A DNA stretch of 64,000 nucleotides from assembly GCA_965205485.1 (NCBI GenBank), contig OZ242180.1:1600001-1664000 (forward strand). The letters run 5' to 3'. A program made the translations under genes and the position numbers. Each line of letters opens with the position of its first letter. The stretch's first letter is position 1. Below, in pieces: positions 43,174-58,200 of the stretch. This stretch comes from Candidatus Latescibacterota bacterium (GTDB lineage: Bacteria; Latescibacterota; UBA2968; GCA-2709665). Under the pieces are notes generated by a model. That model saw nothing but the letters and a program-made list of their open reading frames with translations. It had not been told where the DNA came from and ran no database searches.

Positions 43174-43357
43174 AACAACCCTCCTTAGCGGACGTGGCAG
43201 CGAAAAGCGGGTAGAAGGGAAACGGGAGAGGGCCAGCGTGTGACCAAGCTGTCAGCCGTCAGCCATCAGCTAAAACCAGAAAACCGATCAAGTTGACATC
43301 AGCGCTATAATCTGGACCCCACAAGGGGCGCCCCTACAAATCCAAATACGGCGCGTC

Positions 43358-43545
43358 CGGTGGTGTGGGGGGTTTTTCCGTGTCAATCCGTCCCGCACCT
43401 TAGTTTTGGTTCGCCTTAGGGGCACTTAGGCCACCCAATTCCCTCTGCGGCACTGTGGTGATTCACGGAAAAACCGGCCCCGCGCCGAGCGGCGCCGTTC
43501 TTTTTGGCCCTTTTTCTTTGGCGAGAAAGAAAAAGGGCATAAGAT
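43358..43545 (+). repeat. Structured dispersed element, copy A
   Basis: Stem GGTTTTTCCGTG/CACGGAAAAACC around 81 nt; 13-bp terminal hairpin; 72 bp identical to copy B. Confidence 0.8.
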
Positions 43546-43686
43546 AATAAATAATAGGAAGTTAGTCGGATAATGGTTGCCTGCGGTCAGCAGAAACAAC
43601 CATGCCCATTCACTGTATCAGATCGCGCTCGCTTCGATATGCTCGACGAACATCATTGAGCCGTTAAAGGTATTTCCGGCGGGGGG

Positions 43687-46050
43687 TCACGGCTCCAGAA
43701 CCTGCCGTGTCTCCGCTTCCGAGGCAATGGTCTCCCAGTCCCACAGTTGAGGGATATACGATATGCCACATCGTTGTATTTCCCCACGGAGTTGTCTCCG
43801 CCAATGGTCCCCGACATGCCCAGAGTGCGGGCTGCCGGGATGCCCGGAGGCCCCCAGCGGCACGATCCACAACGAATTGCTCCAGTCCGACGGATCGTGG
43901 ATGTACCGGTTTACCGACATCCCGGTTGCAACAAAGGGCTCGCTCACGTCATACCCGCCAGCCAGCGGCACGTCTCCGTCCCCGTGCGTGGGCAGGCATG
44001 GCGGATCCAGAAGCCGTGCGCATTCCGGAAAAACCTGCGACAGCGGATGCCTCGGACGGGTGTGGTGGACGCGGCCCCACCGCCACTCCGACATCTCATC
44101 GCCCAAGCGCTCCCTGAGGTCGCCGACGGCCTGACGGAGACTCTCAGCCAGAAGGTCTTCCCAGCTGCGTCCCTCCGGCAACATAGACCCGTCGCCCCGC
44201 TCGAGGCCCAGGATCATCTCCAGAACGATCAATCGGATATGCGCCTCCCCTCCTGAAGCCCCTTCCAGCGCAGGGGCCGCCATTTCGCCCAGCAGGTGTT
44301 CCGCCAGGATTCGCGTGGCGCACAGGCGGGTTTGGGAATAGATCGTCGGCTGTGGCAGGTCCCGGTCCATGCGATAGTCCCACTCGCGCAGGAGAGCCAG
44401 GGCTCGCCCGGACGCCGCGTCGGGAGTGCTGATATTCAGGAGCGCCTGTGTAAAAATCCTCGCCGGAATCGACGTCCGGTCTGCGTGCATACCAGCCATA
44501 TCCTCCACGGTTGCCGTGCCAGGCTTCAGATCCAGTATGTCCAGTTGAAGCCGTCTGGCCCTGTATTCCGGACTGAAGTACAGCCCGACGTAGTGCGGAT
44601 AGTCGTGTCCGGCCACGCGCTGGTTGCAGGTCACCGCGTACCCGGCCTGCGGATCGATCGCCCGTGGCAGGTCGTCGTGAGGGATATACCCCTGCCACTC
44701 GTATTCCCCGGTCCACCCCGGTACCGCCCGCCATCCATTGGCCTCGGTACGAATGGGGATCTTTCCCTCGTGCAGATATCCGAATCCGCCCCGGACGTCC
44801 ACAACCGCATAGTTGTTCACCCGGTCGGTCCAATTCTCAAATGCGCCGTGCAGTTCCTCAGCGGTGGTCGAGAACATCGCCTCCCTTGCGGCGTCCAGCC
44901 ACGGGGTGCCTTTGATGAGGCCCGGATCGCTGATCGCGATTCCGTACCCGGCCTCGGGATTGCCCGCGATGACAGGGCCGTGATGCGTGACGGTCACTTC
45001 GATCTCTTCCGCCTCTGCGTCACGTACTTCAATTGTCTCACGCAGGACTTCAGCCTGTATCCACTCGCCCCTGAATGCATACTCCCGCCGGCCTGACGTC
45101 TCCCGGAAGCGCTCCACGAAAAGGTCCTGCGTGTCGGCATTTCCGTACGTCATTCCCCAACCCACGTGCTGGTTGTGGCAGAAGTGCAGGATCCCGGGCA
45201 TCCCGGGTATCGAAGATCCGATAATCGAGAATTCGGGACATGAGAGATGGGCCTGATAGTAGACGCTCGGCGTATCCAGTGCCCGGTGAGAATCCCCGCC
45301 CATCAGCGGCAATCCGGAGCGGGTACGGTCCCCAGAAATCGACCAGGCGTTGGACCCGGCGTCCGCCTCCTTCAGCCAGTTGACGTCCTCCAGCGCTTTC
45401 CCGAGTTCCTCCAGCCCGTCCACCGCAGGCCCTCGATACACCTCCCCGGGGGGTACGGTGAGCAGATGGCCGCCGGGATACCCCTTGATCATGCGCGCTG
45501 CCCTCTCGGGGCCGATTTCGAGGGCCAGGCGCGTCCGGAAGAGTTTCGGCTCAAACGTCCCCAGCAGGGTATTGCGCATCTTGTAGACGGCAATACAGTG
45601 CCAGTTCTCCCACGGTTCGGGCGACCTGTCCAGAAGTTTGTATTCGACCGGATACGTCGACGTCGTTTCGATGAATGCGTTCACGCCCGCGGTGTACGCG
45701 TCCACCATCGCTCTCGCGGCTGCGCCCGCCGCCTCGTAGTCATGCCTGGCGGTGCGCCCCATTCCGGCCGTACGCAACAGCCTGTCCTGGTCCACGCCGT
45801 CGGGGCCGGCGATTTCCGCCCACCGCCCCAGCGCCCGGAACCGGTCGTAGTCCATATGCCAGAGCCGGTCCTGGGCTGTCGCGAAACCCTGCGCGAAGAA
45901 TACGTCGTGTTCGTTGCCGGCGCGAATGTGCGGAATGCCCCACCGGTCCCGACAGATTGTAACCGCGTCGATCAGACCGGGCAGGCGTAGCGTGGAGGTC
46001 ACATCCGGCAGCGCGCCCTCAAGGTCGGCCTCCGTGAGCTCTACTGGCAT
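43687..46050 (-). CDS. Penicillin acylase family (Ntn-hydrolase)
   Basis: RDRWGIPHI, AQDRLWHMD, GSNAW catalytic Ser, THHGPV, SGHPGSPH. Confidence 0.93.
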   Translation of the reverse strand: MPVELTEADLEGALPDVTSTLRLPGLIDAVTICRDRWGIPHIRAGNEHDVFFAQGFATAQDRLWHMDYDRFRALGRWAEIAGPDGVDQDRLLRTAGMGRTARHDYEAAGAAARAMVDAYTAGVNAFIETTSTYPVEYKLLDRSPEPWENWHCIAVYKMRNTLLGTFEPKLFRTRLALEIGPERAARMIKGYPGGHLLTVPPGEVYRGPAVDGLEELGKALEDVNWLKEADAGSNAWSISGDRTRSGLPLMGGDSHRALDTPSVYYQAHLSCPEFSIIGSSIPGMPGILHFCHNQHVGWGMTYGNADTQDLFVERFRETSGRREYAFRGEWIQAEVLRETIEVRDAEAEEIEVTVTHHGPVIAGNPEAGYGIAISDPGLIKGTPWLDAAREAMFSTTAEELHGAFENWTDRVNNYAVVDVRGGFGYLHEGKIPIRTEANGWRAVPGWTGEYEWQGYIPHDDLPRAIDPQAGYAVTCNQRVAGHDYPHYVGLYFSPEYRARRLQLDILDLKPGTATVEDMAGMHADRTSIPARIFTQALLNISTPDAASGRALALLREWDYRMDRDLPQPTIYSQTRLCATRILAEHLLGEMAAPALEGASGGEAHIRLIVLEMILGLERGDGSMLPEGRSWEDLLAESLRQAVGDLRERLGDEMSEWRWGRVHHTRPRHPLSQVFPECARLLDPPCLPTHGDGDVPLAGGYDVSEPFVATGMSVNRYIHDPSDWSNSLWIVPLGASGHPGSPHSGHVGDHWRRQLRGEIQRCGISYIPQLWDWETIASEAETRQVLEP

Positions 46051-46167
46051 GCATTGTCCTCTTCAATGGTGGTCTACGACGAACTCTGGCGTGCGTAATT
46101 CGATTATCGAACGGTTTTCTTTGTGTCTTGGTGCCTTTGTGCCTTTGTGTGAGGATGACGTTGAATT

Positions 46168-47076
46168 CTAAGCCGACGCCACGCGGTCGAGCCAGCGTTG
46201 AACCGCCTCCGAGAAACCGTCTGCGTTGTGGTCGGACACCACAGGAAACCGCGCTCGCAAGGGCTCCGGGGCGTTTTGGACGACAAATGGAAATCCGCAC
46301 CAATGCAACATATCCGAGTCATTATAGTCGTTGCCGATGGCAGCGGTGCGGCCGGCGTCCACGCCCAGGCGTTCGCACAGCCTGGCAGCGGACCGGGCCT
46401 TGGAAACGTGCTTTGGAAAAATCTCGAACCACGTGGACTGGTGGTCGGAAGGCGACGTGGTCCGGATCACCGACAGGTCCTCCAGGGCGTTCGAGAGCGC
46501 GTCGTGAGTGCGCAAGGGATCCGTTTCGGTCGGACAGACAACCACAAACTGCGAGGCCCGGCCGTTTCCGGGGCAACCGGGAATCAACGGGCGACAGTGT
46601 TCCGCGTTGTATTGACGCCTGCGTACAAAATCGGGGTTGTTTTCGTTCTGCTCCCAGTACTCGAACGTATGGTTCTCCGGAACGGGCGCGTGGATCATGA
46701 AGTCATATCCGCCGTCGATAAGATGCCCGGTAACGCGGCGCACGTCTCCGGCGGAAAGGGAATGGGATTCCACCAGCGTCTGATCCCGACAATCGAAAAC
46801 ACCGACCCCGGACGAAGTGATCAGAAAATCGATCGGGAATGACTCGCTCAGGACGGTACGGGCCGACATATGCGACCTGCCGGTGACCACCGTCCGCCAG
46901 ACGTTCTTTCCGCCCAGCTTTTTCAGCGTTTCCAGGCTTCGGACGCTTGCCTTGCGATCGCTCTGCAGCAGCGTGCCGTCAAGGTCCGTAAACAGTGCAA
47001 GGCCCGATCTTTCTTCATCTGGCGCCAACCCGTGCCTCCATCCACGCGCGGTCGACCTTTCAGCCGCGCTGCCCAA
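46168..47076 (-). CDS. Cof-type HAD-IIB hydrolase
   Basis: TDLDGTLL, VTGRS, SKA, IGNDYNDSDML; start may lie downstream of 47076. Confidence 0.88.
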   Translation of the reverse strand: MGSAAERSTARGWRHGLAPDEERSGLALFTDLDGTLLQSDRKASVRSLETLKKLGGKNVWRTVVTGRSHMSARTVLSESFPIDFLITSSGVGVFDCRDQTLVESHSLSAGDVRRVTGHLIDGGYDFMIHAPVPENHTFEYWEQNENNPDFVRRRQYNAEHCRPLIPGCPGNGRASQFVVVCPTETDPLRTHDALSNALEDLSVIRTTSPSDHQSTWFEIFPKHVSKARSAARLCERLGVDAGRTAAIGNDYNDSDMLHWCGFPFVVQNAPEPLRARFPVVSDHNADGFSEAVQRWLDRVASA

Positions 47077-47192
47077 GCATCGGCAAAACGACAGGAATAC
47101 AACACAAAAAACGGCGCACTACCGTGCGCCTTCTCTCTCATTCAAGGCCCCTGACCTGTCTTCGGTTCAGGCGAATCCTGCCGATCTGCCGG

Positions 47193-47774
47193 TCAATCCC
47201 GGGACCGTTTGCGGAAATACAACACCCGGTGCAGGGCGGTATAGTTGGACAGAAACGCAATGGCCCAGATCGCTATCGTCAGACCGATTTCGCCCACGAG
47301 CGCCCCCACGCCAATGGCGATGACCCGTTCAGGCCGCTGCATGAAACCGACCTTGCACTCCTCGCCCAGACCCTCCACACGCGCACGGATATAGCTCACC
47401 ATCAGCGAGCCAGCCAGCGCAAAAAATACGGCGGACGTGGTCCAGAGGGAGTCCGACCGTATGAAGCTGACCGCCACGCCGAACCAGATCACGATTTCCG
47501 AATACCGGTCTACGGTGGAATCCAGCAGGGCGCCGAACGTGGTTTCGCTCCGCCCCACACGAGCCACCTGTCCATCCAGAAAATCGAACACTCCCGCGAG
47601 CAGCACAGTCAGACCGGCCCACCGCAGGTAATCGAATCCGAAAAGCACCGCCGCGACGAGGTTCAGGAGGAACCCGACCAGGGTAAGCGCATTCGGCCGG
47701 AACCGCTTCTTGACAAGATACTGCGTGGAGGGTTCAAGCAGTTCGGCAACGTCGTCTTTAACCTTTTCGATCAC
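47193..47774 (-). CDS. CDP-alcohol phosphatidyltransferase (PgsA/PIP-synthase-like)
   Basis: PNALT, DFLDGQVAR...FGALLDSTVDR, SYIRARVE, MQRPER; GTG start with GGAG RBS. Confidence 0.92.
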   Translation of the reverse strand: MIEKVKDDVAELLEPSTQYLVKKRFRPNALTLVGFLLNLVAAVLFGFDYLRWAGLTVLLAGVFDFLDGQVARVGRSETTFGALLDSTVDRYSEIVIWFGVAVSFIRSDSLWTTSAVFFALAGSLMVSYIRARVEGLGEECKVGFMQRPERVIAIGVGALVGEIGLTIAIWAIAFLSNYTALHRVLYFRKRSRD

Positions 47775-47793
47775 GAGCCAACATTCTCCATAG

Positions 47794-47939
47794 CAGTCCG
47801 TTGAGAAAGTCGCTCTGCAGGCGCGGTCGAAGACAAGGCGCGCGACCGAGTCCCATCCTGCGATTCGGCGAGGGAGCGCAACGCAGTATTTCGACCGCAA
47901 GGGCCGGCCGTAGCCCGGATGGGCTTTTTCAACGGGCTG
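47794..47939 (-). mobile_element. MITE family A, copy 2 (inverted, internal deletion)
   Basis: CAGTCCGTTGAGAAAG...CTTTTTCAACGGGCTG. Confidence 0.85.
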
Positions 47940-48316
47940 TGAGGCCGCAAATACCCACTCCCAGGGTATAAATTTACCCACTGCAGATTTTCCGAAATAT
48001 AGAATAATCGCAGGGGGGTAGCAAGGGAAATCTTCCAACCCGGACGCGCCGCGGATCGACCGATTTCCAACCGTCGACGGGAGGCGCGCTCTATGCCTCC
48101 GGAGTTATCCCGATGTTTTCCACATATCGCGGTTTCGGTAGTAGAGATTGTGAATTACTTCATATAAACTGAAAAATAACACTGATTTAATTATAAACAC
48201 CAGCGGCTGTCCACGTTTTCAACAATGTGAATTCCCAATGCGTCAGATGCCCAATACGACACCTGTAGTCGACCCTCGCCGGGGCGTGCGGACGCCTGCT
48301 TCGTCGTCCTTATCCC

Positions 48317-48345
48317 TTGACATGCGCCGGCCGGCATGTTATTCT
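48317..48345 (+). promoter_or_regulatory. sigma70 promoter of FAH-family gene
   Basis: TTGACA-17 nt-TATTCT with extended TG; ACATGC...GCATGT dyad spans the spacer. Confidence 0.65.
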
Positions 48346-48399
48346 TCGCACCCTGTTCGGCAGGACATCGTAATCCAAAAAAGAAAGGGTGTCCAACTT

Positions 48400-49257
48400 A
48401 TGCGACTGCTCACTTTTGAATACCAGGGTACACGACGCGTCGGCGTCCGTTCGGGAGATTCGGTCGTGGATGTGAGCCGCGTGGATCCGGACATTCCGCC
48501 GGATCTCGTGAGTCTGCTCGAGGCGGGTCCGGATGCGCTGGCCGCGGTGGGAGAAGCGGCAGCGCGGGGCGAGGGCATCGACGCCCGCGACGTCCGCGTG
48601 GCGGCGCCCGTCGGGAATCCGGAAAAGGTCCTCTGCATCGGCCTCAACTACGCGGACCACGCGGCTGAAAGCAATATGCCCATTCCATCGGAGCCGGTGG
48701 TGTTCTCCAAGTTCTCTTCCACCATCATCGGTCCCGGCGATGCAATCCGGCTCCCTTCGATCACGCAGTCCGTCGACTATGAGGTGGAACTGGTGGTCGT
48801 TATCGGAACGGCCGGAAAGGATATATCGGAGTCCGACGCGCTGGATCACGTCGCAGGTTATACCGTGGGCCACGACGTGAGCGCACGGGACTTCCAGCTC
48901 GAGAAACCCGGAGGTCAATGGCTGCTGGGCAAGACCTTCGACACCTTCGCGCCGCTCGGCCCGGACATCGTCACGCCCGACGAGATCGGCGACCCGCACA
49001 ACCTGGGCATTCGCTGTATTCTGAACGGTGAAACCGTGCAGGACTCGAATACGGCGCAGCTGATTTTCAGGATTGACCAGTTGATCGCCTACCTGTCCCG
49101 GGTCGTCACCCTGCAGCCCGGCGACCTGATCTTCACGGGAACGCCGCCGGGAGTCGGAATGGCCCGGGATCCGCAACTCTGGCTCAAGGCCGGCGACACC
49201 GTTGTCTGCGAAATCGACGGCGTCGGACGACTCGAGAATCCGGTTGTCTCGGGCTGA
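48400..49257 (+). CDS. Fumarylacetoacetate hydrolase family protein
   Basis: KVLCIGLNYADH, DYEVEL, DVSARD, GKTFDTF.PLGP, TGTPPGVG. Confidence 0.93.
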   Translation: MRLLTFEYQGTRRVGVRSGDSVVDVSRVDPDIPPDLVSLLEAGPDALAAVGEAAARGEGIDARDVRVAAPVGNPEKVLCIGLNYADHAAESNMPIPSEPVVFSKFSSTIIGPGDAIRLPSITQSVDYEVELVVVIGTAGKDISESDALDHVAGYTVGHDVSARDFQLEKPGGQWLLGKTFDTFAPLGPDIVTPDEIGDPHNLGIRCILNGETVQDSNTAQLIFRIDQLIAYLSRVVTLQPGDLIFTGTPPGVGMARDPQLWLKAGDTVVCEIDGVGRLENPVVSG

Positions 49258-49626
49258 CCGGTCGGAGGTCGAATAACCGGCTTTTCTCCGGCGGTTGCGC
49301 AAACCTCTCGGATCTCGTCGTTCCCGCTGTTCCCGGACGCCACCGATTTCGCATTTCAGACGTGAACGTATTTTATAAAATTCTTAATAAACAATAATTT
49401 ATATCCAACTTCTACACACACAAGCGTGTGTGCTTCTCTCGGAAAGAGCGGCGATCAGTTGCCAGCGGAACCTCTCCCCCCGCCCCCTCTCCTAAAGGAA
49501 AGGGGGAGCAAAACCCGGAATATCGGCCTTACGCGGAGACACAAATAAAGGCAGTCACAATTCAGATAGGCCCGGCACACCCGAAGAGCCGAAAGGAAGT
49601 CCTTGCCTGGAAAACTCACGACCGCA

Positions 49627-49831
49627 CGGTGGAGGAGAGGGGGGTTTACACCACAGAAGAGATTCCACGTTATTCCGTCAACCATTGAAGTATCGTGGGA
49701 TCGGATTCGTACGTAGGCCACAAACGATCGTCTACACCACAGAAGAGATTCGTGGAAAAACCGGCCCCGCGCCGAGCGGCGCCGTTCTTTTTGGCCCTTT
49801 TTCTTTGGCGAGAAAGAAAAAGGGCGTAAGA
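49627..49831 (+). repeat. Structured dispersed element, copy B
   Basis: Stem GGTTT[15 nt insert]TTCCACG/CGTGGAAAAACC around 81 nt; 3' part identical to copy A. Confidence 0.8.
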
Positions 49832-50106
49832 AAATAAAAAACAATAAGTAATTGGAAAAACGTGCGACAAACAGCCATCTTTCTTCTTTCTAAATCATGT
49901 CTCCGGCGGATTCTTTTTCGTCCATTTTCGCACATTAGAAGTGGGACGAAGAGAAAAGCAAGTCGGTGTGATGTAAAGAGCCTCAAACCACCCGGAAGGT
50001 AGTCACGGGGAGCCGTTGTCCGCCGACAGGAGATCTGCCAAGAGGCTATGGACCAGCAGCGACGGGACGACCTCTAGATAGTCTTTCGCCGTATAATGTA
50101 TTTCAG

Positions 50107-51966
50107 ATGCCGCATAACGGAGGATGCCAGGATGAATCTCGGAGACATGATCGAAAGGGCGCGAGGTTCAGCCAGCAGGCGCTGGGCGAAAAGATCGGGG
50201 TCTGGGGCACCTATATCGGGCAGATAGAAAGCGGAAAGCGCATTCCGTCCGATGAGCGATGCCGGGAACTGGCGGCCATGCTTGACCTGGACCCCAGGGC
50301 GCTATTGATTCAGGCTTACCGCCAGCGCGCCAATACGAAAGAGGCCAGGCGCCTTTTCGATGACATGGCTGGATCGACTGCCGAACCTGCCAGCCACGAG
50401 CCGGGAGAAGGCGCCGAAGGCGACCACCAACTCTACGGGGTCGTGCGGGAAGAGAACCCCCCGGTCCGGATCGGCCGCGCCGGCGAGCCGCCCTTCACCC
50501 GCGGCGTCTATCCCACCATGTATCGCGGGCGCCTCTGGACCATCCGCCAGTACGCAGGATTCTCCACCCCGGCAGAGACCAATGCCCGGTTTCGCGCTCT
50601 GCTCGATCGGGGTCAGACCGGTCTGAGCGTGGCGTTCGACCTGCCTACACAAATGGGCTACGACTCGGACGATCCGAATGCGGAAGGTGAGGTGGGCAGG
50701 GTGGGCGTAGCGGTAGACGGCCTGTGGGACCTGGAAAACCTGTTCGATGAAATCCCGCTGGACCGTATCAGCACGTCCATGACGATCAACGCGACGGCGT
50801 GCATCCTGTTCGCCCTGTACGCGGCCCTCGGAAAAAGGCGCGGTTTGCCGGCATCGGTGCTTGCCGGCACGGTCCAGAACGACATTCTCAAAGAATATGT
50901 TTCACGTGGAACCTATATCTTCCCGATCGCCGATTCGATGCGTCTCGTCGTGGACCTGATGGGCTATTGTCTTCGGGAAGCGCCAAAATGGAATCCCGTC
51001 AGCGTTAGCGGCTACCACATGAGAGAAGCCGGCGCAACCGCCGCGCAAGAGCTTGGTTTTACACTCGCCCACGCCCTGGCGTATGCCGATGCCGCCCGCG
51101 GGGCCGGCCTGGAAATGGAACGGATTCTGCCGAAATTTTCCTTCTTCTTCGGGGTCCACAACGATTTTTTGGAGGAAATCGCGAAGTTCCGGGCGGCGAG
51201 GCGCCTCTGGAGCCGGCTCGTCGAGGAACGTCTGGGCGTAGAGGACCCCCGTTGCCGGCGCCTGAGATTTCACGCCCAGACCGCCGGTTCGACGCTCACG
51301 GCCCAACAGCCATTGAACAACTGCGCGCGGACCACCCTGCAGGCGCTGGCGGCCGTCCTGGGCGGCGCGCAGTCGCTGCATGTCAACGCCTACGACGAAG
51401 CGCTCGGGCTTCCGTCTGATACCGGAGCGCAACTGGCCGTGCGCACCCAGCAGATCCTGGCAAACGAAAGCGGTATCCGCGACACCGTGGATCCGATGGG
51501 CGGATCCTATGCAGTGGAAGAGATGACCGATAACCTGGAAGAGGAAGCCATTGCCGTTATCGAGTCGGTCGACAGGGAGGGTGGGGCGACGCAGGCTGCC
51601 GCAAACGGCTTTACTGCCGCCTCCATCGCGGAATCCGCGTACGAGGCGCAGAAGAAAATCGAATCGGGCAAGACCGTGGTGGTGGGGGTGAACCGGTATC
51701 AGGACACACCGGAACCGCCGGTTTCGGTGTTCCAGCCCCCGGGGGAGACAGAGTACACACAGAAAGGCGGGCTGGAGAGGGCACGAGGCATGCGGAATTC
51801 CGACGCCGCGAACGCCGCAATGGACGTCGTCGAGCGGCGGGCGAGGGGCGAGGGTTCGATCACGGAAGCGGTCGTGGCGGCCTGTTCGGTCGGTGCTACC
51901 GTGGGCGAGATATCGGACAGGCTGCGTGCTGTTTTTGGATCCTACAGACCGGGAGGGCAATCGTGA
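50107..51966 (+). CDS. XRE-HTH fused to methylmalonyl-CoA mutase catalytic (large) subunit; 5' end uncertain
   Basis: SQQALGEKIGVWGTYIGQIESGKRIPS (HTH); PFTRGVYPTMY...WTIRQYAGF, QNDILKEY, SGYHMREAG, AKFRAARRLW; no B12-binding domain. Confidence 0.88.
   Translation: MPHNGGCQDESRRHDRKGARFSQQALGEKIGVWGTYIGQIESGKRIPSDERCRELAAMLDLDPRALLIQAYRQRANTKEARRLFDDMAGSTAEPASHEPGEGAEGDHQLYGVVREENPPVRIGRAGEPPFTRGVYPTMYRGRLWTIRQYAGFSTPAETNARFRALLDRGQTGLSVAFDLPTQMGYDSDDPNAEGEVGRVGVAVDGLWDLENLFDEIPLDRISTSMTINATACILFALYAALGKRRGLPASVLAGTVQNDILKEYVSRGTYIFPIADSMRLVVDLMGYCLREAPKWNPVSVSGYHMREAGATAAQELGFTLAHALAYADAARGAGLEMERILPKFSFFFGVHNDFLEEIAKFRAARRLWSRLVEERLGVEDPRCRRLRFHAQTAGSTLTAQQPLNNCARTTLQALAAVLGGAQSLHVNAYDEALGLPSDTGAQLAVRTQQILANESGIRDTVDPMGGSYAVEEMTDNLEEEAIAVIESVDREGGATQAAANGFTAASIAESAYEAQKKIESGKTVVVGVNRYQDTPEPPVSVFQPPGETEYTQKGGLERARGMRNSDAANAAMDVVERRARGEGSITEAVVAACSVGATVGEISDRLRAVFGSYRPGGQS
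50898..50913. other. parS site inside the mutase CDS
   Basis: TGTTTCACGTGGAACC, 14/16 match to TGTTTCACGTGAAACA; identical to the 57818 copy. Confidence 0.75.
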
Positions 51967-54938
51967 ACGGTCGAGAACGCCGCAGAGCCGGAATCATGCA
52001 CTATCGACGACGCCTCAGGGGCATTGCCGCATTCGTCATGCCGGTAGCGCTTGCAGTCTGGGCTCCGGCGCCGGCCCAGAGCCAGACCGGTGTGATCAAG
52101 GGCCAGGTCCTGGACGCCTCATCCGGACGTCCCCTTTCCGATGCCCATGTCACTGTTATGGGGACCGGAATCGTCAAACTCACCAATGTAGCAGGCCACT
52201 TCACGCTTTTCAATGTCCCCGTCGGCGAGCATGTCGTGCGCGCGTCCTTTATCGGTTACGGTGAAGCCGAACAGATCGTGACCGTCGGTGCCGGGGAGAC
52301 ACACGACATCGACTTCGAGATGTTCTTAACGGCGATCGCGCTCGACGTGATCGTCGTGACCGGCGTGGGGGCCGAAACTGCCCGGCGCGCCCTCGGTACG
52401 TCGGTCGAAGTACTCACCACCGAAGAAATCGCGCAGGCGCCGGTCCAGTCCGTGGACCAGTTGCTTGTGGGCCGCGTCGCGGGCGCGACCGTAAACGCCA
52501 CCTCGGCGCAGCCGGGAACGGGCTCGCTGATCAATTTCCGGGGCATTTCCTCGGTGTTCGGCGCCCAGACCCCAGTCATATACGTGGACGGGGTGCGCGT
52601 CGACAACGAACAGGCAACCGCCGCGGGCACTGGAGGCGAGCAGTCCTCCGCGCTCGCCGACCTGCTCACCAGCGATATAGACCGTATCGAGATCACCAGG
52701 GGTGGTGCCGCCTCCACTCTGTACGGTTCCGACGCCGCAACCGGGGTGATCCAGATCTTCTCCAGGAAAGGCACTCCCGGGGCGCCGCGCATTACGGTCC
52801 GCGTAGAACAGGGCATCGAGGTGCCGGAACTCAAGTACATCTTCGACGCCGGCGCGATCTTCCCGGACCGGGTCGAGTCCGGCGAGGTCACGGCCACCTT
52901 CCTGGAAGATCAGTACTTCAAGAGCGGTCAGGCCAGGAGCTACTACCTGGGCGTCAGCGGAGGCACAGCGGACGTGACGTTCATTGTCAGCGGCCGCCTC
53001 GAGGACCGCACCGGAACCCAGCCCAAGGATGCCAGCACCAACTACAACCTGCGAGGCGGCCTGCAAGCGTCCCTCAGCGAGGATTTCACCCTGGAGTTTT
53101 CGGGAAGTTACGTCCACCACAACTTCCAACGGCTCTATAACGGTTCCTCCATCACGAATCCCATCACGACCTTCGAGGTCGGCGACGCCCTCTTCTTCTC
53201 GGGAGCCGCCACCCTCCTGGAGGCGTACAACGTCTTCCTGATGCCGGATATCGACGAATGGGTCAACCGGTTCATCTTCTCCGCCGGCGCCCGCTGGAAC
53301 ATCCGCGACGACCTGACCGCCAGGCTGACGGTGGGTAGCGACTACCGGAGCAACCAGCAGCGGATCTTCCAGCCGATCGGATTTACGCCGGGCGAACCCA
53401 CCGGACAACTCAATCGGCGGGACCGCTCCTTCACCTCAGTGTCGCTCGACGCGGGCGGGACCTACGCGTGGGAGAACTCAGGCGGGAGCCTCGGGTCCTC
53501 GCTCACCGTCGGTGTGCAAGGCTTCCGCGAGGACGTGAGCATCATCAACGGCAACGGGCTGGGGTTCGCCCTGCCAGGTTCCTTCGACTTCGACGCGGCG
53601 GCGGAGATCACCGCCTTTGAGGGCAACGTCGAGGTGTTTAACGGCGGGTTGTACGTGGACGAACAGCTCAGCTTCTGGAACAAGCTCTACCTCGGTGGCG
53701 GGTTCCGCATCGACGCCGGCTCCAGCTTCGGAGATAATATCGACACGGAACTTTATCCAAAGGCGACCGGGTCGTACATCCTTTCCGACGACTTCAGCCT
53801 GCCTTTCGTGGACGAACTCAAGCTCAGAGCCGCCTACGGGCAAACCGGCCGGTTCCCGGGCGCCTTCCTGAAGGACCGGACCTTCTCGGCCATCTCCTTC
53901 CGCGGGGAGTCGGCCCCGAGGTTTGCCAATCCGGGCAACGCGGAACTTCGCCCGGAGAAGACTTCCACGATCGAGGCCGGTATCGACGCCGCTCTCTGGG
54001 ACAACCGGATCGGGATCGACCTGACCGTATACGACGCCCGCACCACCGACGCGCTCTTCCAGGTGCCGCGCCAGCCGGTCACCGGGCAGGGCACCCAGCA
54101 GGAGAACGTGGGCCAGATCCTGAACCGTGGGATCGAATTGGGCGCCAACGTCGAGATTCTGAACACCAGGAAGGTGGCCTGGAGCCTGGGTGGAACATTC
54201 CACTACACTCACAATGAAGTCACCGACATGGGCGGCGTGGCGGACTTCGGCGCGGACGGTTCCCAGAAGCGTGTGACCGGCTGCTGGAGGATGGTCGACG
54301 GGGAGTGCCGCGGAGGTCCTGTAGGCGCCTGGTGGGTGACTACGCCCGTGGACACCAACGATGACGGCTTGCCAGACGGCTCCGAGCGCCAGTTCACCGG
54401 CGGATTCCCGGTTCCGGACAAGAGTGGAAGCTTCAACACCACGATCGCGATCGGCAACATCCTGACGATCAGCGCTCTGGCCGACTGGGCCGGCGGTCAT
54501 CAGGTGTTCGACTGGGGTTCGGTCTGGGCGACTTTCAACGGCATATACCGTCGTGAGCTCGTTCGCTGCGGGATGGAAGAAGGCGCCGCCGAGGGCTGCG
54601 AGTACGCCTTCCCGATCCGGTATGACGAGAACGGCTCCGCGCAGGGCAAGTACAGCCAGAACGCCGCGCGGAGCGCGTTCCTCTACGACGGCGACTTTTT
54701 CAAGCTAAGAGAGGTCGCGGTGCGGTACTTGCTGCCGGAGGGCGTTTCCGGCAGCATCAACGCCAGCCGGGCTTCGCTGTTCGCCAATGGCCGCAACCTG
54801 TGGATCTGGTCCCGGAACGAGATCGTCGACGGCGAACTCAACGGGCTTTCCGGCGGCGGACTGCAGCTCGGTGGCGAAACGAGTACGACCCTTTCCCCGA
54901 ACCGGCGGTTCAACCTCGGCATGGAGGTGGTCTTCTAA
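51963..54938 (+). CDS. SusC/RagA-like TonB-dependent receptor
   Basis: Signal peptide, carboxypeptidase-regulatory-like N-domain, plug (PVIYVDG...DIDRIEITRGGAASTLYGSDAATGVIQI), GNAELRPE, C-terminal F. Confidence 0.9.
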   Translation: MNGRERRRAGIMHYRRRLRGIAAFVMPVALAVWAPAPAQSQTGVIKGQVLDASSGRPLSDAHVTVMGTGIVKLTNVAGHFTLFNVPVGEHVVRASFIGYGEAEQIVTVGAGETHDIDFEMFLTAIALDVIVVTGVGAETARRALGTSVEVLTTEEIAQAPVQSVDQLLVGRVAGATVNATSAQPGTGSLINFRGISSVFGAQTPVIYVDGVRVDNEQATAAGTGGEQSSALADLLTSDIDRIEITRGGAASTLYGSDAATGVIQIFSRKGTPGAPRITVRVEQGIEVPELKYIFDAGAIFPDRVESGEVTATFLEDQYFKSGQARSYYLGVSGGTADVTFIVSGRLEDRTGTQPKDASTNYNLRGGLQASLSEDFTLEFSGSYVHHNFQRLYNGSSITNPITTFEVGDALFFSGAATLLEAYNVFLMPDIDEWVNRFIFSAGARWNIRDDLTARLTVGSDYRSNQQRIFQPIGFTPGEPTGQLNRRDRSFTSVSLDAGGTYAWENSGGSLGSSLTVGVQGFREDVSIINGNGLGFALPGSFDFDAAAEITAFEGNVEVFNGGLYVDEQLSFWNKLYLGGGFRIDAGSSFGDNIDTELYPKATGSYILSDDFSLPFVDELKLRAAYGQTGRFPGAFLKDRTFSAISFRGESAPRFANPGNAELRPEKTSTIEAGIDAALWDNRIGIDLTVYDARTTDALFQVPRQPVTGQGTQQENVGQILNRGIELGANVEILNTRKVAWSLGGTFHYTHNEVTDMGGVADFGADGSQKRVTGCWRMVDGECRGGPVGAWWVTTPVDTNDDGLPDGSERQFTGGFPVPDKSGSFNTTIAIGNILTISALADWAGGHQVFDWGSVWATFNGIYRRELVRCGMEEGAAEGCEYAFPIRYDENGSAQGKYSQNAARSAFLYDGDFFKLREVAVRYLLPEGVSGSINASRASLFANGRNLWIWSRNEIVDGELNGLSGGGLQLGGETSTTLSPNRRFNLGMEVVF

Positions 54939-55126
54939 GAAGTTGTTTTAAAATTACCGGTGAGTTCCCGAGCGCGAGCGAAAGAGTGGCGGTCAAGGCG
55001 GGAAAATCCTCCCATATCTAATGTATCGTGGCTGCGCGCCCCTCGCCACTCTTGGGTGGATTTGACTAACGCCGACCGGCGCTTTTGCAGCCGCGCGAAG
55101 ACCGCCGGGAATTTTAAGACAGCTTC
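54939..55126. mobile_element. MITE family B
   Basis: TIRs GAAGTTGTTTTAAAATT / AATTTTAAGACAGCTTC (15/17), flanked by TAA direct repeat. Confidence 0.75.
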
Positions 55127-55158
55127 TAACGTCCGGCATGCAATGGAGAACAGACAAA

Positions 55159-56631
55159 ATGATGAACAAGGACATATCGACTCTGAGACGGGGACGGTCG
55201 GCCATGGCCGGGATGCTTCTCAGCGTGCTTGTCGCCGGTGGATGTGACGCCATCAATCCCACCAGGGTGAAGAATCCGACGACAACCTACGAGGACCTGG
55301 CGCAGGCCACGAACGCGACCCAGGCGCTCCTGCCCGGGCTGAGGGCGCAGTTCGCCCGGCTGATCAATGCCTACGTCGTCGCCGAAGTCGTGACCGACAA
55401 CTTTTCGATCCACGGCACTGGGCTAATCCAGACCCTGGACGCCCCCGACGAGATCACCCCGGACATCATGAACTCGACCGGTACCAGCGCCACCGGGGTG
55501 TACTGGAACGTGCAGGAGTTACGGGCGCTGGCCGATTTTGTAATCAATGAGATCGCGCCGAACGATGCCGGGGCACCTCCGGAACTGGTGGCGGAAGCGC
55601 GCTACTACCGGGGCATGGCCTACCTGACCATGGGTGAGGTCTTCTCCTTCGTGCCGCTCGAGGAGGACGGCGCCCCTCAACCCTCTGACGTTGCGCTTGA
55701 CCGGGCCGTGAGCGACCTGCAGGCGGCGCTGGGGTTCGGACCGCAGGCCAACGCGGCGCTTGCGCGGGCCTATCGTTTGCAGGGTGACCGGGCAGGGGCG
55801 GCTGCAGCGGCCAACGCGGTGCTTTCCGCTGACTCGGAGTTTCTTTTCGCACCTCGCTACGACGGGAGTTCGATCACCAACACGTCTGTGAACTTCCTGG
55901 TATTGAGGGCGTTGCAGGAGATGCAGCCGCTGCCCCGGCTGGATTTCCTGGACCCCAAGTACACGGATCGCGAGTCGGCAATACCCATTGCGAAAGCCGA
56001 GGAAATGCACCTGATCCTGGCCGAAGTCGCGCTGGCGTCGGGCGACCTCGCCGGGGCGAAGAGCCAGCTGGCCGGCGCCATACGCCTTGCCGGATCCCGC
56101 GGCGCCGTTTCCTTCGACGATATCGACGAGCGCCGCAACGCCGACCTGAGCCTGCGTCCGCGCGACTCCGAAATCCTGGTGCGGGCCGACTCCGATAGTC
56201 CCTACCGGGCCGGCCTGGTGCTCGACCGGCCGGGCGCCGGGCTCACGATCCCGAACATTTCCGGGACATCTCTCGACGCCGACAGTGTCACGGCGTTGTC
56301 GGACGCATCCGACCTGTGGCACGCGCTGTGGCTCGCGCGGCAGGAGATCCTCTTCCTGGAAGGAAGGAGACTCGCCGACCTGGGGATCAGGCTGCCGATG
56401 ATGCTGCGGGAGATCGACCAGAACCCCAACATCAGCGAAGGCGGACCAGGCACCGTGCCAGTCGTCCCCGGATTCGTCCCGCTGGCGCCGCGCTACGCGA
56501 TGGATATCTACGCGCCGGTCGAGCTGTACGATGGCGACGGCCCCGAAGCGCGCCTGCTCCAGACGAAGGTTACGATCGGGGTAGACATGAACCGGTTGCT
56601 CGTGCAACACAACGCTTCACCCTTCAAATAG
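55159..56631 (+). CDS. SusD/RagB-like outer-membrane lipoprotein
   Basis: Lipobox VAGGC; AEARYYRGMAY, EEMHLILAE, RQEILFLEGRRL.D; follows SusC-like gene; start uncertain. Confidence 0.75.
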   Translation: MMNKDISTLRRGRSAMAGMLLSVLVAGGCDAINPTRVKNPTTTYEDLAQATNATQALLPGLRAQFARLINAYVVAEVVTDNFSIHGTGLIQTLDAPDEITPDIMNSTGTSATGVYWNVQELRALADFVINEIAPNDAGAPPELVAEARYYRGMAYLTMGEVFSFVPLEEDGAPQPSDVALDRAVSDLQAALGFGPQANAALARAYRLQGDRAGAAAAANAVLSADSEFLFAPRYDGSSITNTSVNFLVLRALQEMQPLPRLDFLDPKYTDRESAIPIAKAEEMHLILAEVALASGDLAGAKSQLAGAIRLAGSRGAVSFDDIDERRNADLSLRPRDSEILVRADSDSPYRAGLVLDRPGAGLTIPNISGTSLDADSVTALSDASDLWHALWLARQEILFLEGRRLADLGIRLPMMLREIDQNPNISEGGPGTVPVVPGFVPLAPRYAMDIYAPVELYDGDGPEARLLQTKVTIGVDMNRLLVQHNASPFK

Positions 56632-56735
56632 AAGGACCGGCAGTCCGTAGCCGCCTGTTTGGTAAACGCCACCGTGGGCGAGATATCGGACAGGCTGCGC
56701 GCTGTTTTTGGACCCTGCAGACCGGGAGGATAATC

Positions 56736-57134
56736 GTGGACGGACGCGTGGACCACGTGGGCATCGCAGTGGAGGAGATTGACCGGACCCTGGCCGTTTA
56801 TTCCATGCTCGGGTTCGAAAGGATGGAGGAAGAGACCGTAGAGTCAGAAGGCGTCCGGGCCCTATTTCTGGGCGGCGCCGGCCCGACCCGGCTCGAACTC
56901 CTCGAACCGCTGCACGATGGGAGTTCTCTTGCGCGATTCCTTTCGGGGCGGGGGCAGGGCCTGCACCACGTCGCGATCCGGGTCAGGGATATCGAAGCGG
57001 CCGTCTCAGCTTTCGAAGAAGAGGGGCTCACGATCTCCGGCGCGATCAGGACGGGCGCACTGGGCAGAAAAGTGGCCTTCGTCCATCCCAAAAGCGCATC
57101 GGGCGTCCTGATCGAGCTCGTTCAGGCCGATTGA
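56736..57134 (+). CDS. mce: Methylmalonyl-CoA epimerase (VOC family)
   Basis: VDHVGIAV, LELLEP, GQGLHHVAIRV, AFVHPKSASGVLIEL; GGAGG RBS + GTG. Confidence 0.9.
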   Translation: MDGRVDHVGIAVEEIDRTLAVYSMLGFERMEEETVESEGVRALFLGGAGPTRLELLEPLHDGSSLARFLSGRGQGLHHVAIRVRDIEAAVSAFEEEGLTISGAIRTGALGRKVAFVHPKSASGVLIELVQAD

Positions 57135-57809
57135 TCATCCGCCACGTGCCGAGATCCGAACGAGCATCGTGTTACCGTGGCGCCTTCCGGTCGCCAGGGA
57201 TTCTATGGACACCTCCGGGCCATCGGGTCCGAATTCCTCTACTTCCCTGAGCGCGCCGGGACCCTTCAGCGCAAGCAGTTCACCATCCTTCTTGAGAAAT
57301 CCTGACGAAAGCCGCCACAGGACCGGCAGGGCGCCCACCGCCCGAGCCGTTACGATATCGTACCTCCCGCGATGCTCGGCACGCCCGCAGGCGGCCTCCG
57401 CCCGTTCGGCCAAAACCGACAGCCCGTCCAGATTGAGATCTCCCGCCAGGTGGTTCAGAAAGAGTCCCTTCATGCGCGCCGACTCCAGCAGCACGACTTT
57501 CACCTCCGGGCGGGCAATTTTGACCGGCACGCCCGGAAAACCCGCTCCCGATCCCAGGTCCAGCAGCGAAATCTCTCCGCGAGGCAGAAGGGGCGTTACC
57601 CGCAGACTGTCGATGAAGTGACGCTCTCTGATTTTGTCTCTGTCCCCTCGGGAAACCAGTCGCACCCGTCCGGACCAGGTCCTCAACAGCGCCTCATATC
57701 GATCAAAGAGTACGGCCTGCTCGTCCGACAACGGGACCGACAGTGCCTCCGCAGCTGCCAGGAATTCCTGATCGGTCACCGCTCCTCCACGCGCATCCGA
57801 AAAACCCAA
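57135..57809 (-). CDS. rsmG: 16S rRNA m7G527 methyltransferase
   Basis: RHFIDSL, LDLGSGAGFPGVP, RAE, YDIVTARAV, ALKG. Confidence 0.93.
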   Translation of the reverse strand: MGFSDARGGAVTDQEFLAAAEALSVPLSDEQAVLFDRYEALLRTWSGRVRLVSRGDRDKIRERHFIDSLRVTPLLPRGEISLLDLGSGAGFPGVPVKIARPEVKVVLLESARMKGLFLNHLAGDLNLDGLSVLAERAEAACGRAEHRGRYDIVTARAVGALPVLWRLSSGFLKKDGELLALKGPGALREVEEFGPDGPEVSIESLATGRRHGNTMLVRISARGG

Positions 57810-57817
57810 CGCGCCGA

Positions 57818-57833
57818 TGTTTCACGTGGAACC
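57818..57833. other. parS site upstream of rsmG
   Basis: TGTTTCACGTGGAACC, in the origin-proximal gene cluster. Confidence 0.8.
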
Positions 57834-58000
57834 ATAAAAGAAGCCATCAGCCGTCAGCCTAAACCAAGAACCGAATCCGCGACAAGGCGGGCAGCCACAA
57901 GGGCTGCCCCTACAAATATAACGTCGGCACAGAGTAATCAGTCACCTGCGGGTCCAACAATAAATCCATACGGTAGATCGATTGGGTCGCCTGGCGCCAC

Positions 58001-58200
58001 GCACGGTGGTGGCGTGGGGGCTTTTCCGCGCTTTTCCGTTCAGCAACATGGTTTGGCAAGACCAGCGGAGGACGCAGGCCAACGGCTTCACGTTCCTTCT
58101 ACAGAGGTGGTTCGCGGAAAAGCAGCCCCGCGGCGTCTGAGCGGCGCCCTTCTTTTTCGCCCTTTTTCTTGGGCGATTTCAAGAAAAAGGGCAAGGGAAT
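58001..58200 (+). repeat. Structured dispersed element, copy C
   Basis: Stem GCTTTTCCGCG/CGCGGAAAAGC around 82 nt; terminal hairpin GCCCTTTTTCTTG...CAAGAAAAAGGGC. Confidence 0.75.

Follow-up and report, generated by a model that had tools for sequence, protein, structure and literature searches.

The closest described systems to the repeat studied here are the repetitive extragenic palindromes (REPs), together with bacterial interspersed mosaic elements (BIMEs) and REPINs, and the BoxC/PIT/TMECO repeats. The former are intergenic, occur in many copies and form inverted doublets in mosaic clusters at polymorphic sites (PMC6006769, PMC1525189); the latter are three-block intrastrand triplex repeats, likewise intergenic, with no strand bias, variable surroundings and no transposase nearby (PMC4666352). 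These features recur, the triplex as a prediction, in a family of dispersed elements with three copies (A, B and C) in a window of 64,000 nt, the whole stretch of DNA analysed, from a Candidatus Latescibacterota bacterium (GenBank assembly GCA_965205485.1, contig OZ242180.1, positions 1,600,001 to 1,664,000, forward strand). We estimate a probability of about 0.5 that this is a non-autonomous, BIME-like mosaic selfish element that folds on the + strand, likely as transient single-stranded DNA, and whose loops are homogenised by gene conversion.

In the way it works the element is akin both to BIME/REPIN mosaics and to BoxC/TMECO triplex repeats, yet on the features tested it belongs to neither, nor is it a miniature inverted-repeat transposable element (MITE) or a guide RNA. 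Unlike REP, BIME and REPIN sequences, it is ~170-190 nt long, with a long-range helix, a fixed loop and a predicted triplex-pseudoknot, and its alignments contain no GTAG-type foot, GTAG palindromes being separate neighbours. The genome has no RAYT gene, and in relatives it is other palindromes that flank the RAYT genes. Unlike in MITEs, the inverted arms are internal and conserved sequence runs at least 60 nt past the right arm, so they are not terminal inverted repeats. TMECO triplexes, at 34-37 nt, are G/C-rich and of the purine motif (PMC4666352), whereas this element is T/A-rich, has pyrimidine-motif order on the + strand and a covarying pseudoknot, and carries a larger body; the main text of PMC4666352 makes no mention of a pseudoknot. 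TMECO triplexes form in vitro, while formation in vivo is not shown there (Holder et al. 2015, PMC4666352). The orphan Rfam motif RF02421 (Bp1_Cand684_SIPHT) is comparable in occurring in several phyla beside unrelated neighbours (PMC3521395), but neither the window nor the loci tested match Rfam. Specifically, the window returns only a tRNA, and the element loci tested return no family at the gathering threshold, their best E-value matches being sub-threshold and terminator-like. No description of the element was found in the open-access main texts searched; Weinberg-type motif tables or the ITxF database may contain related entries.

A U-rich loop strand on an A-U rich stem, in H-type pseudoknot geometry, is characteristic of the ENE/MALAT1 triple helices and the telomerase pseudoknot. 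The tail of our element resembles them in that a loop strand mirrors the pyrimidine strand of its stem together with a pseudoknot, known here from geometry and covariation, and differs in being bacterial, dispersed and mobile. Conserved scaffolds with variable unpaired segments also occur in IS110 bridge RNAs, TnpB/IscB omega RNAs and TIGR arrays. Unlike these, the element has no effector gene or target complementarity, and its variable positions are scattered rather than confined to two short blocks.

Copies, helices and an unpaired core of fixed length

The three copies lie where the initial annotation had placed them. Their arms (CCGTG/CACGG in A, CCACG/CGTGG in B, CCGCG/CGCGG in C) were re-read in the sequence, their core lengths were re-measured as listed below, and A and B share an identical 3' end of 72 nt, as claimed.

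43358..43371, + strand: G-rich leader of copy A, the outer stem of the initial annotation; family-wide support weak
43372-43382 with 43464-43474, + strand: closing helix P1 of copy A, enclosing the 81-nt unpaired core 43383-43463
43387, + strand: core anchor TCCGT of copy A; AGGCCA is a further anchor of this core
43480..43492, + strand: hairpin P3 of copy A, a 4-bp covarying stem with a 5-nt loop
43493..43538, + strand: predicted triple-helix pseudoknot of copy A, its geometry drawn from mirror symmetry
43493-43497 with 43519-43523, + strand: helix S1 of copy A
43498-43505, + strand: predicted third strand of copy A
43507-43518 with 43527-43538, + strand: helix S2 of copy A
49627..49825, + strand: copy B, with arms 49665-49669 / 49751-49755, an 81-nt core 49670-49750 and a predicted triplex-pseudoknot 49780-49825
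49648..49662, + strand: within the left arm of B, a 15-nt duplicate of the end of the core of this copy
58001..58192, + strand: copy C, with arms 58020-58030 / 58113-58123, an 82-nt core 58031-58112, a longer P3 loop and a predicted triplex-pseudoknot 58145-58192

The duplicate in B is possibly an assembly artefact or a variant, because a short-read contig spanning 49146-49777 shows 15 gap letters there.

A profile search finds about 43 loci of this family, hereinafter F1, in the 5.13-Mb genome (44 rows, one locus counted twice). A sister family, F2, has 17 copies, with core anchors as in F1 and different arms and tail, and the two families together make up about 60 non-coding repeats. Families of this size, and the folding of copy A reported below, place the observation well outside chance expectation. 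All 58 parsed copies of F1 and F2 are intergenic (three F1 rows were unparsable), and the orientation of F1 relative to neighbouring genes is unbiased (21 sense, 20 antisense). Back-to-back repeats define a BIME (PMC6006769), and 11 of the 17 F2 copies stand back-to-back with an F1 copy. Copies at genome positions 1009552, 1920430 and 1945019 hold internal duplications or inserts, consistent with slippage.

Four helices (P1, P3, S2 and S1) account for the scaffold. They are paired in 96.2% of cells across 44 copies, with 10 pairs changed on both sides, in an alignment picked to cover the subtypes in which eight rows are mis-registered at P3; covariation counts here, and in the matches outside the family described below, include related copies that are not independent. 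None of 500 shuffles reaches the score, and slid controls are 46-58% paired. P1 is Watson-Crick in 813/819 cells, P3 pairs in 361/364 cells when anchored, and wobble pairs are almost absent from P1, P3 and S2. With RNAalifold, P1 and S2 are recovered, and 82 columns of the core stay unpaired. Covariation of all four helices bears out the conserved scaffold seen by the initial annotation. The G-U-containing outer stem that it drew for copy A is weakly supported: family-wide, 254 mismatches and 59 A-C oppositions fall among 1251 cells, in the C subtype the stem extends for 3 bp before it breaks, and it competes with the P3 hairpin.

The core is constrained in length and variable in sequence. Mean identity is 56% among 110 F1 rows, while the first core segment measures 41 nt in 40 of the 41 parsed F1 copies of the genome; of 117 cores whose second segment is 34-35 nt long, 112 have a first segment of this length. 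The parsing patterns tolerate a few bases of slack, and larger indels would drop out. Two other repeat families of the genome carry one indel per 5-10 substitutions. By comparison, core indels are near-absent while substitutions abound, and we therefore conclude that core length is selected; neutral decay does not describe the core.

No Watson-Crick covariation was found inside the core, and the core folds no better than column-shuffled chimeras, as RNA or as DNA, so pairing inside it was rejected. A coding origin was rejected on 1-nt length variants and stops in the few copies read by eye, and hypermutation on the six sites, shared with relatives, that keep their core at 0.86-1.00 identity. 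The two halves of the core reassort independently.

A predicted triple-helix pseudoknot in the tail

The 13-bp hairpin of the initial annotation is real and covarying (S2), but it is not a lone hairpin. Specifically, S1 pairs the S2 loop with bases just upstream, forming a pseudoknot, and the tract TTCTTTTT between S1 and S2 is the mirror image of the S2 pyrimidine strand. Because of this mirror symmetry, seven T.A-T and one C.G-C triples are predicted. The tract is near-invariant within F1 and changes in step in F2 and in one distant relative, and the order of the arms fits a pyrimidine-motif triplex on the + strand. The triple helix itself is a prediction from mirror symmetry and covariation.

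The tail also occurs as a module outside this family. Using a pattern in which only the S2 hairpin and three T upstream are fixed, we found 70 stretches in viral contigs and more than 122 in metagenomes, with unrelated bodies in front. Among the 123 distinct viral-contig and metagenome matches listed, 112 have a third-strand tract that mirrors the duplex, mirroring of a C holds in 82 of 89 cases, the mean number of triples is 5.9 versus 4.0 when shuffled, and S1 reaches at least 3 pairs in 87 versus 50 (maximum 65) with shuffled partners. Viral contigs gave no match to a stricter tail pattern, and none to the core pattern. The three triplex arms covary three-way across repeat families, and because arms and pseudoknot change in step across many unrelated families, the triplex fold appears to be under selection. 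A further family with the same tail and another body was observed at six loci (L151, L177, L182, L343, L352 and L394), at the first three of which it stands back-to-back with an F-type core. The module offers short defined molecules, DNA or RNA, for studying whether intrastrand triplexes have a role in bacteria.

Which strand and which molecule fold can be judged in part. G.T outnumbers A.C 30 to 6 beside S1 (p about 0.04 against shuffles), which gives modest support to the + strand polarity proposed by the initial annotation; the outer stem, from which that polarity had been read, gives none. Both strands of copy A fold well (z of -4.3 on the + strand and -4.95 on the - strand). DNA is slightly favoured over RNA as the folding molecule, because the stems are near-pure Watson-Crick and F2 tails end in G-N-A triloops (71/72 tails, all four N represented). 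GNA loops form very stable DNA mini-hairpins, the related RNA hairpin being much weaker, and one GNA-loop hairpin lies in a single-strand priming signal (PMC13037366). On balance, a DNA element has about an even chance, and RNA a distinctly smaller one.

Turnover among relatives and competing explanations

Copy A DNA is matched in 14/14 genomes of the genus, in 2/4 others of the family and in 0/12 of a second family. A core pattern is present in 19/168 genomes of the phylum (reversed control 0), and in a GTDB scan 80 loci among the matches listed are titled Latescibacterota, Gemmatimonadota or uncultured bacterium; because the pattern recovers 78 of 158 known cores, these counts are lower bounds. 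Individual sites change quickly. Site A is empty in 5/5 close relatives, all of which have similar GTAG-type palindromes there; site B holds an F1 element of another subtype in 3/3 readable relatives; and site C is mixed, several mis-anchored rows being ignored.

Among 59 elements in close relatives, 23 occupy sites whose counterpart in this genome lacks a copy of the same family, and 19 share the site. The core is retained at six of the shared sites (0.86-1.00); at the other 13 it differs and is in every case closer to another copy in this genome, e.g., 0.44 at the site versus 0.97 elsewhere. At one locus (L159), the leader is near-identical to that of this genome up to the arm, beyond which the core differs. 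Since loops at shared sites resemble copies elsewhere, the exchange of segments suspected from the three window copies is real and its donors look like siblings; as judged from the sequences, gene conversion from sibling copies is the likely route. Turnover and cassette replacement in this intergenic DNA are very fast, and the core exchange adds a clue to mechanism.

The four covarying helices, intergenic copies, polymorphic sites and lack of a cognate gene nearby agree with the initial annotation's suggestion of a structured non-autonomous element. We propose that the + strand, as transient single-stranded DNA, would fold into the closing helix, the unpaired fixed-length loop, the hairpin and the pseudoknot-locked triple helix. 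An enzyme acting in trans, which would need the core anchors at fixed spacing, may copy the elements into repeat-rich spacers, and loops would be overwritten by gene conversion from sibling copies.

Several observations weigh against this proposal. None of the three window copies has the G-N-A tail immediately behind it, the F2 tails are kin, and in an unbiased viral set G..A loops occur in only 4/30 tail hairpins. Pyrimidine-motif triplexes form in RNA too (PMC4666352), and one that is combined with a pseudoknot and G.T pairs would suit RNA at least as well. Reinsertion at hot spots accounts for the 13 replaced cores equally well, and 17 of the 59 elements are unplaced (15 lacked a flank, two are not syntenic). 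No clean ends or target duplication were seen between filled and empty sites, where junctions are unreadable because empty sites hold other repeat modules. A genome scan gave no Y1, IS110 or reverse transcriptase (RT) match, and none of 17 Y1 loci of relatives in the genus carries F1 or F2. The preference for the leading strand is weak (F1 26:15, F2 8:9).

A tentative alternative is a structured small RNA with many gene copies, in which the triple-helix pseudoknot at the 3' end, ENE- or telomerase-like in geometry, would protect it or dock a protein, and which would have spread as a passenger resembling a short interspersed nuclear element. The arm order and the G.T excess beside S1 fit such an RNA, and group II intron-type RTs are present in 8/14 genomes of the genus; the intron insertion sites seen, however, are other repeats and never F1 or F2 elements. 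The near-absence of wobble pairs from P1, P3 and S2, the G-N-A triloops of F2, the absence of an Rfam match and the absence of a sigma-70-like promoter at copy A also speak against an RNA.

A more speculative reading, which we regard as doubtful, is an uncatalogued class of prokaryotic mobile element, in which the terminal triple-helix pseudoknot would be a handle for an enzyme, possibly as a priming, nicking or end-protection signal shared by all members, and the 81-nt loop, an addition of the Latescibacterota member, an exchangeable cassette that this enzyme reads base by base.

It is unlikely that the copies, instead of being selfish, are DNA structural sites that the host maintains for replication, recombination or nucleoid organisation. 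In favour, copies are concentrated round the probable origin region, with 3 of 58 between 2.6 and 4.8 Mb, GC skew is flat where they are dense, and in E. coli the surroundings of TMECO triplex repeats are more variable on account of these repeats (PMC4666352). Sites nevertheless change quickly from one relative to the next, 149/168 genomes of the phylum lack the core pattern, and other repeat modules show the same positional bias. The skew is flattened at 0.55-2.5 Mb, and copies are scarce toward the probable terminus near 4.1 Mb; the flattening suggests repeat-mediated inversions, and the family may be a driver of rearrangements close to the origin.

Less likely still is an RNA that carries a guide or template for a programmable enzyme, as bridge, omega or TIGR RNAs do, a reading entertained by the initial annotation in which the loop would be the programmable part. 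The unpaired fixed-length loop, the fixed anchors, the conserved scaffold and the independent exchange of loop halves invite it, but matches are at control level: 12-mer matches outside the elements number 27.5 per core versus 26.2 in controls, and the longest match to a core's own flanks is 8.03 versus 7.99 to those of other elements. Copy A, the sole copy searched, has no blastn match in plasmids or phages, a search that short matches would escape. Cores are common to several genomes and sites, replaced cores resemble siblings, neighbouring genes are unrelated and ordinary with no adjacent effector, and an element is near only 3 of 69 IS110, RT and TnpB loci of relatives; at one of these (L464) an IS110 element splits it, and at the others (L488 and L498) it is a neighbouring repeat that contains an intron. 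A guide RNA with self-targets is largely refuted, and we have no evidence here for a new programmable system.

A decayed MITE of the ordinary kind, its interior neutrally diverged, to which the polymorphic sites and the many substitutions, with transitions slightly above transversions (990:862), might point, is most improbable, because the length conservation of the nearly indel-free core contradicts neutral decay, helices and triplex arms covary, and the inverted arms are internal with no target duplication seen.

Neighbouring genes and repeats

The window contains no cognate protein, as the initial annotation had stated, and the neighbours are unrelated ordinary genes. No recurrent mobile-gene family was found among neighbours in the genome or at the listed loci of other genomes; 83 viral-contig neighbours gave no mobile family against Pfam, and 111 metagenome neighbours gave one IS4 transposase and no recurrent family against NCBIfam. 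These neighbouring open reading frames were picked mechanically and include some wrong-strand frames (e.g., a 528-aa frame of L274), and a cognate gene could be missed. The genome has no GxxExxY match and two four-helix-bundle genes, with these elements not nearby.

The triplex module is itself a target of insertion. Four insertion sequences (families judged by eye) lie in it in this genome, L159 carries an 85-nt insert there, and at L464 (360-1980) an IS110-family element encoding 456 aa splits the module of an F1 copy. IS110 members likewise insert in REPs (PMC1525189).

Other repeat modules surround the copies: GTAG palindromes, runs of hexamers and TMECO-like C-rich/G-rich hairpins. In the window, these modules are:

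43314..43337, - strand: GTAG-type REP-like palindrome adjoining copy A, a separate mosaic module
49471..49508, + strand: C-rich/G-rich hairpin module near copy B, BoxC/TMECO-like by eye against the consensus in PMC4666352
57889..57913, - strand: GTAG-type REP-like palindrome upstream of copy C

Copy C lies between rsmG-like and mnmE-like genes, and at L023 the rsmG-mnmE spacer holds a group II intron-like element that apparently lacks an open reading frame. Full group II intron-like elements are inserted in hexamer and other short repeats at L488-L515. In relatives, RAYT-like genes (L040-L053) have palindromes of two other families on their flanks, together with duplicated fragments of the genes' own 5' ends.

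Two other abundant MITE-like families with terminal inverted repeats are represented in the window. One, at 47794-47940, has 121 blastn matches in the genome and many unlike flanks in metagenome contigs. The other, at 54938-55128, has 133 blastn matches in the genome and sits in the spacer that separates a TonB-dependent receptor-like gene from the next one. At 50107-51966, a 619-aa open reading frame appears by eye to join a helix-turn-helix segment to a methylmalonyl-CoA mutase-like domain.

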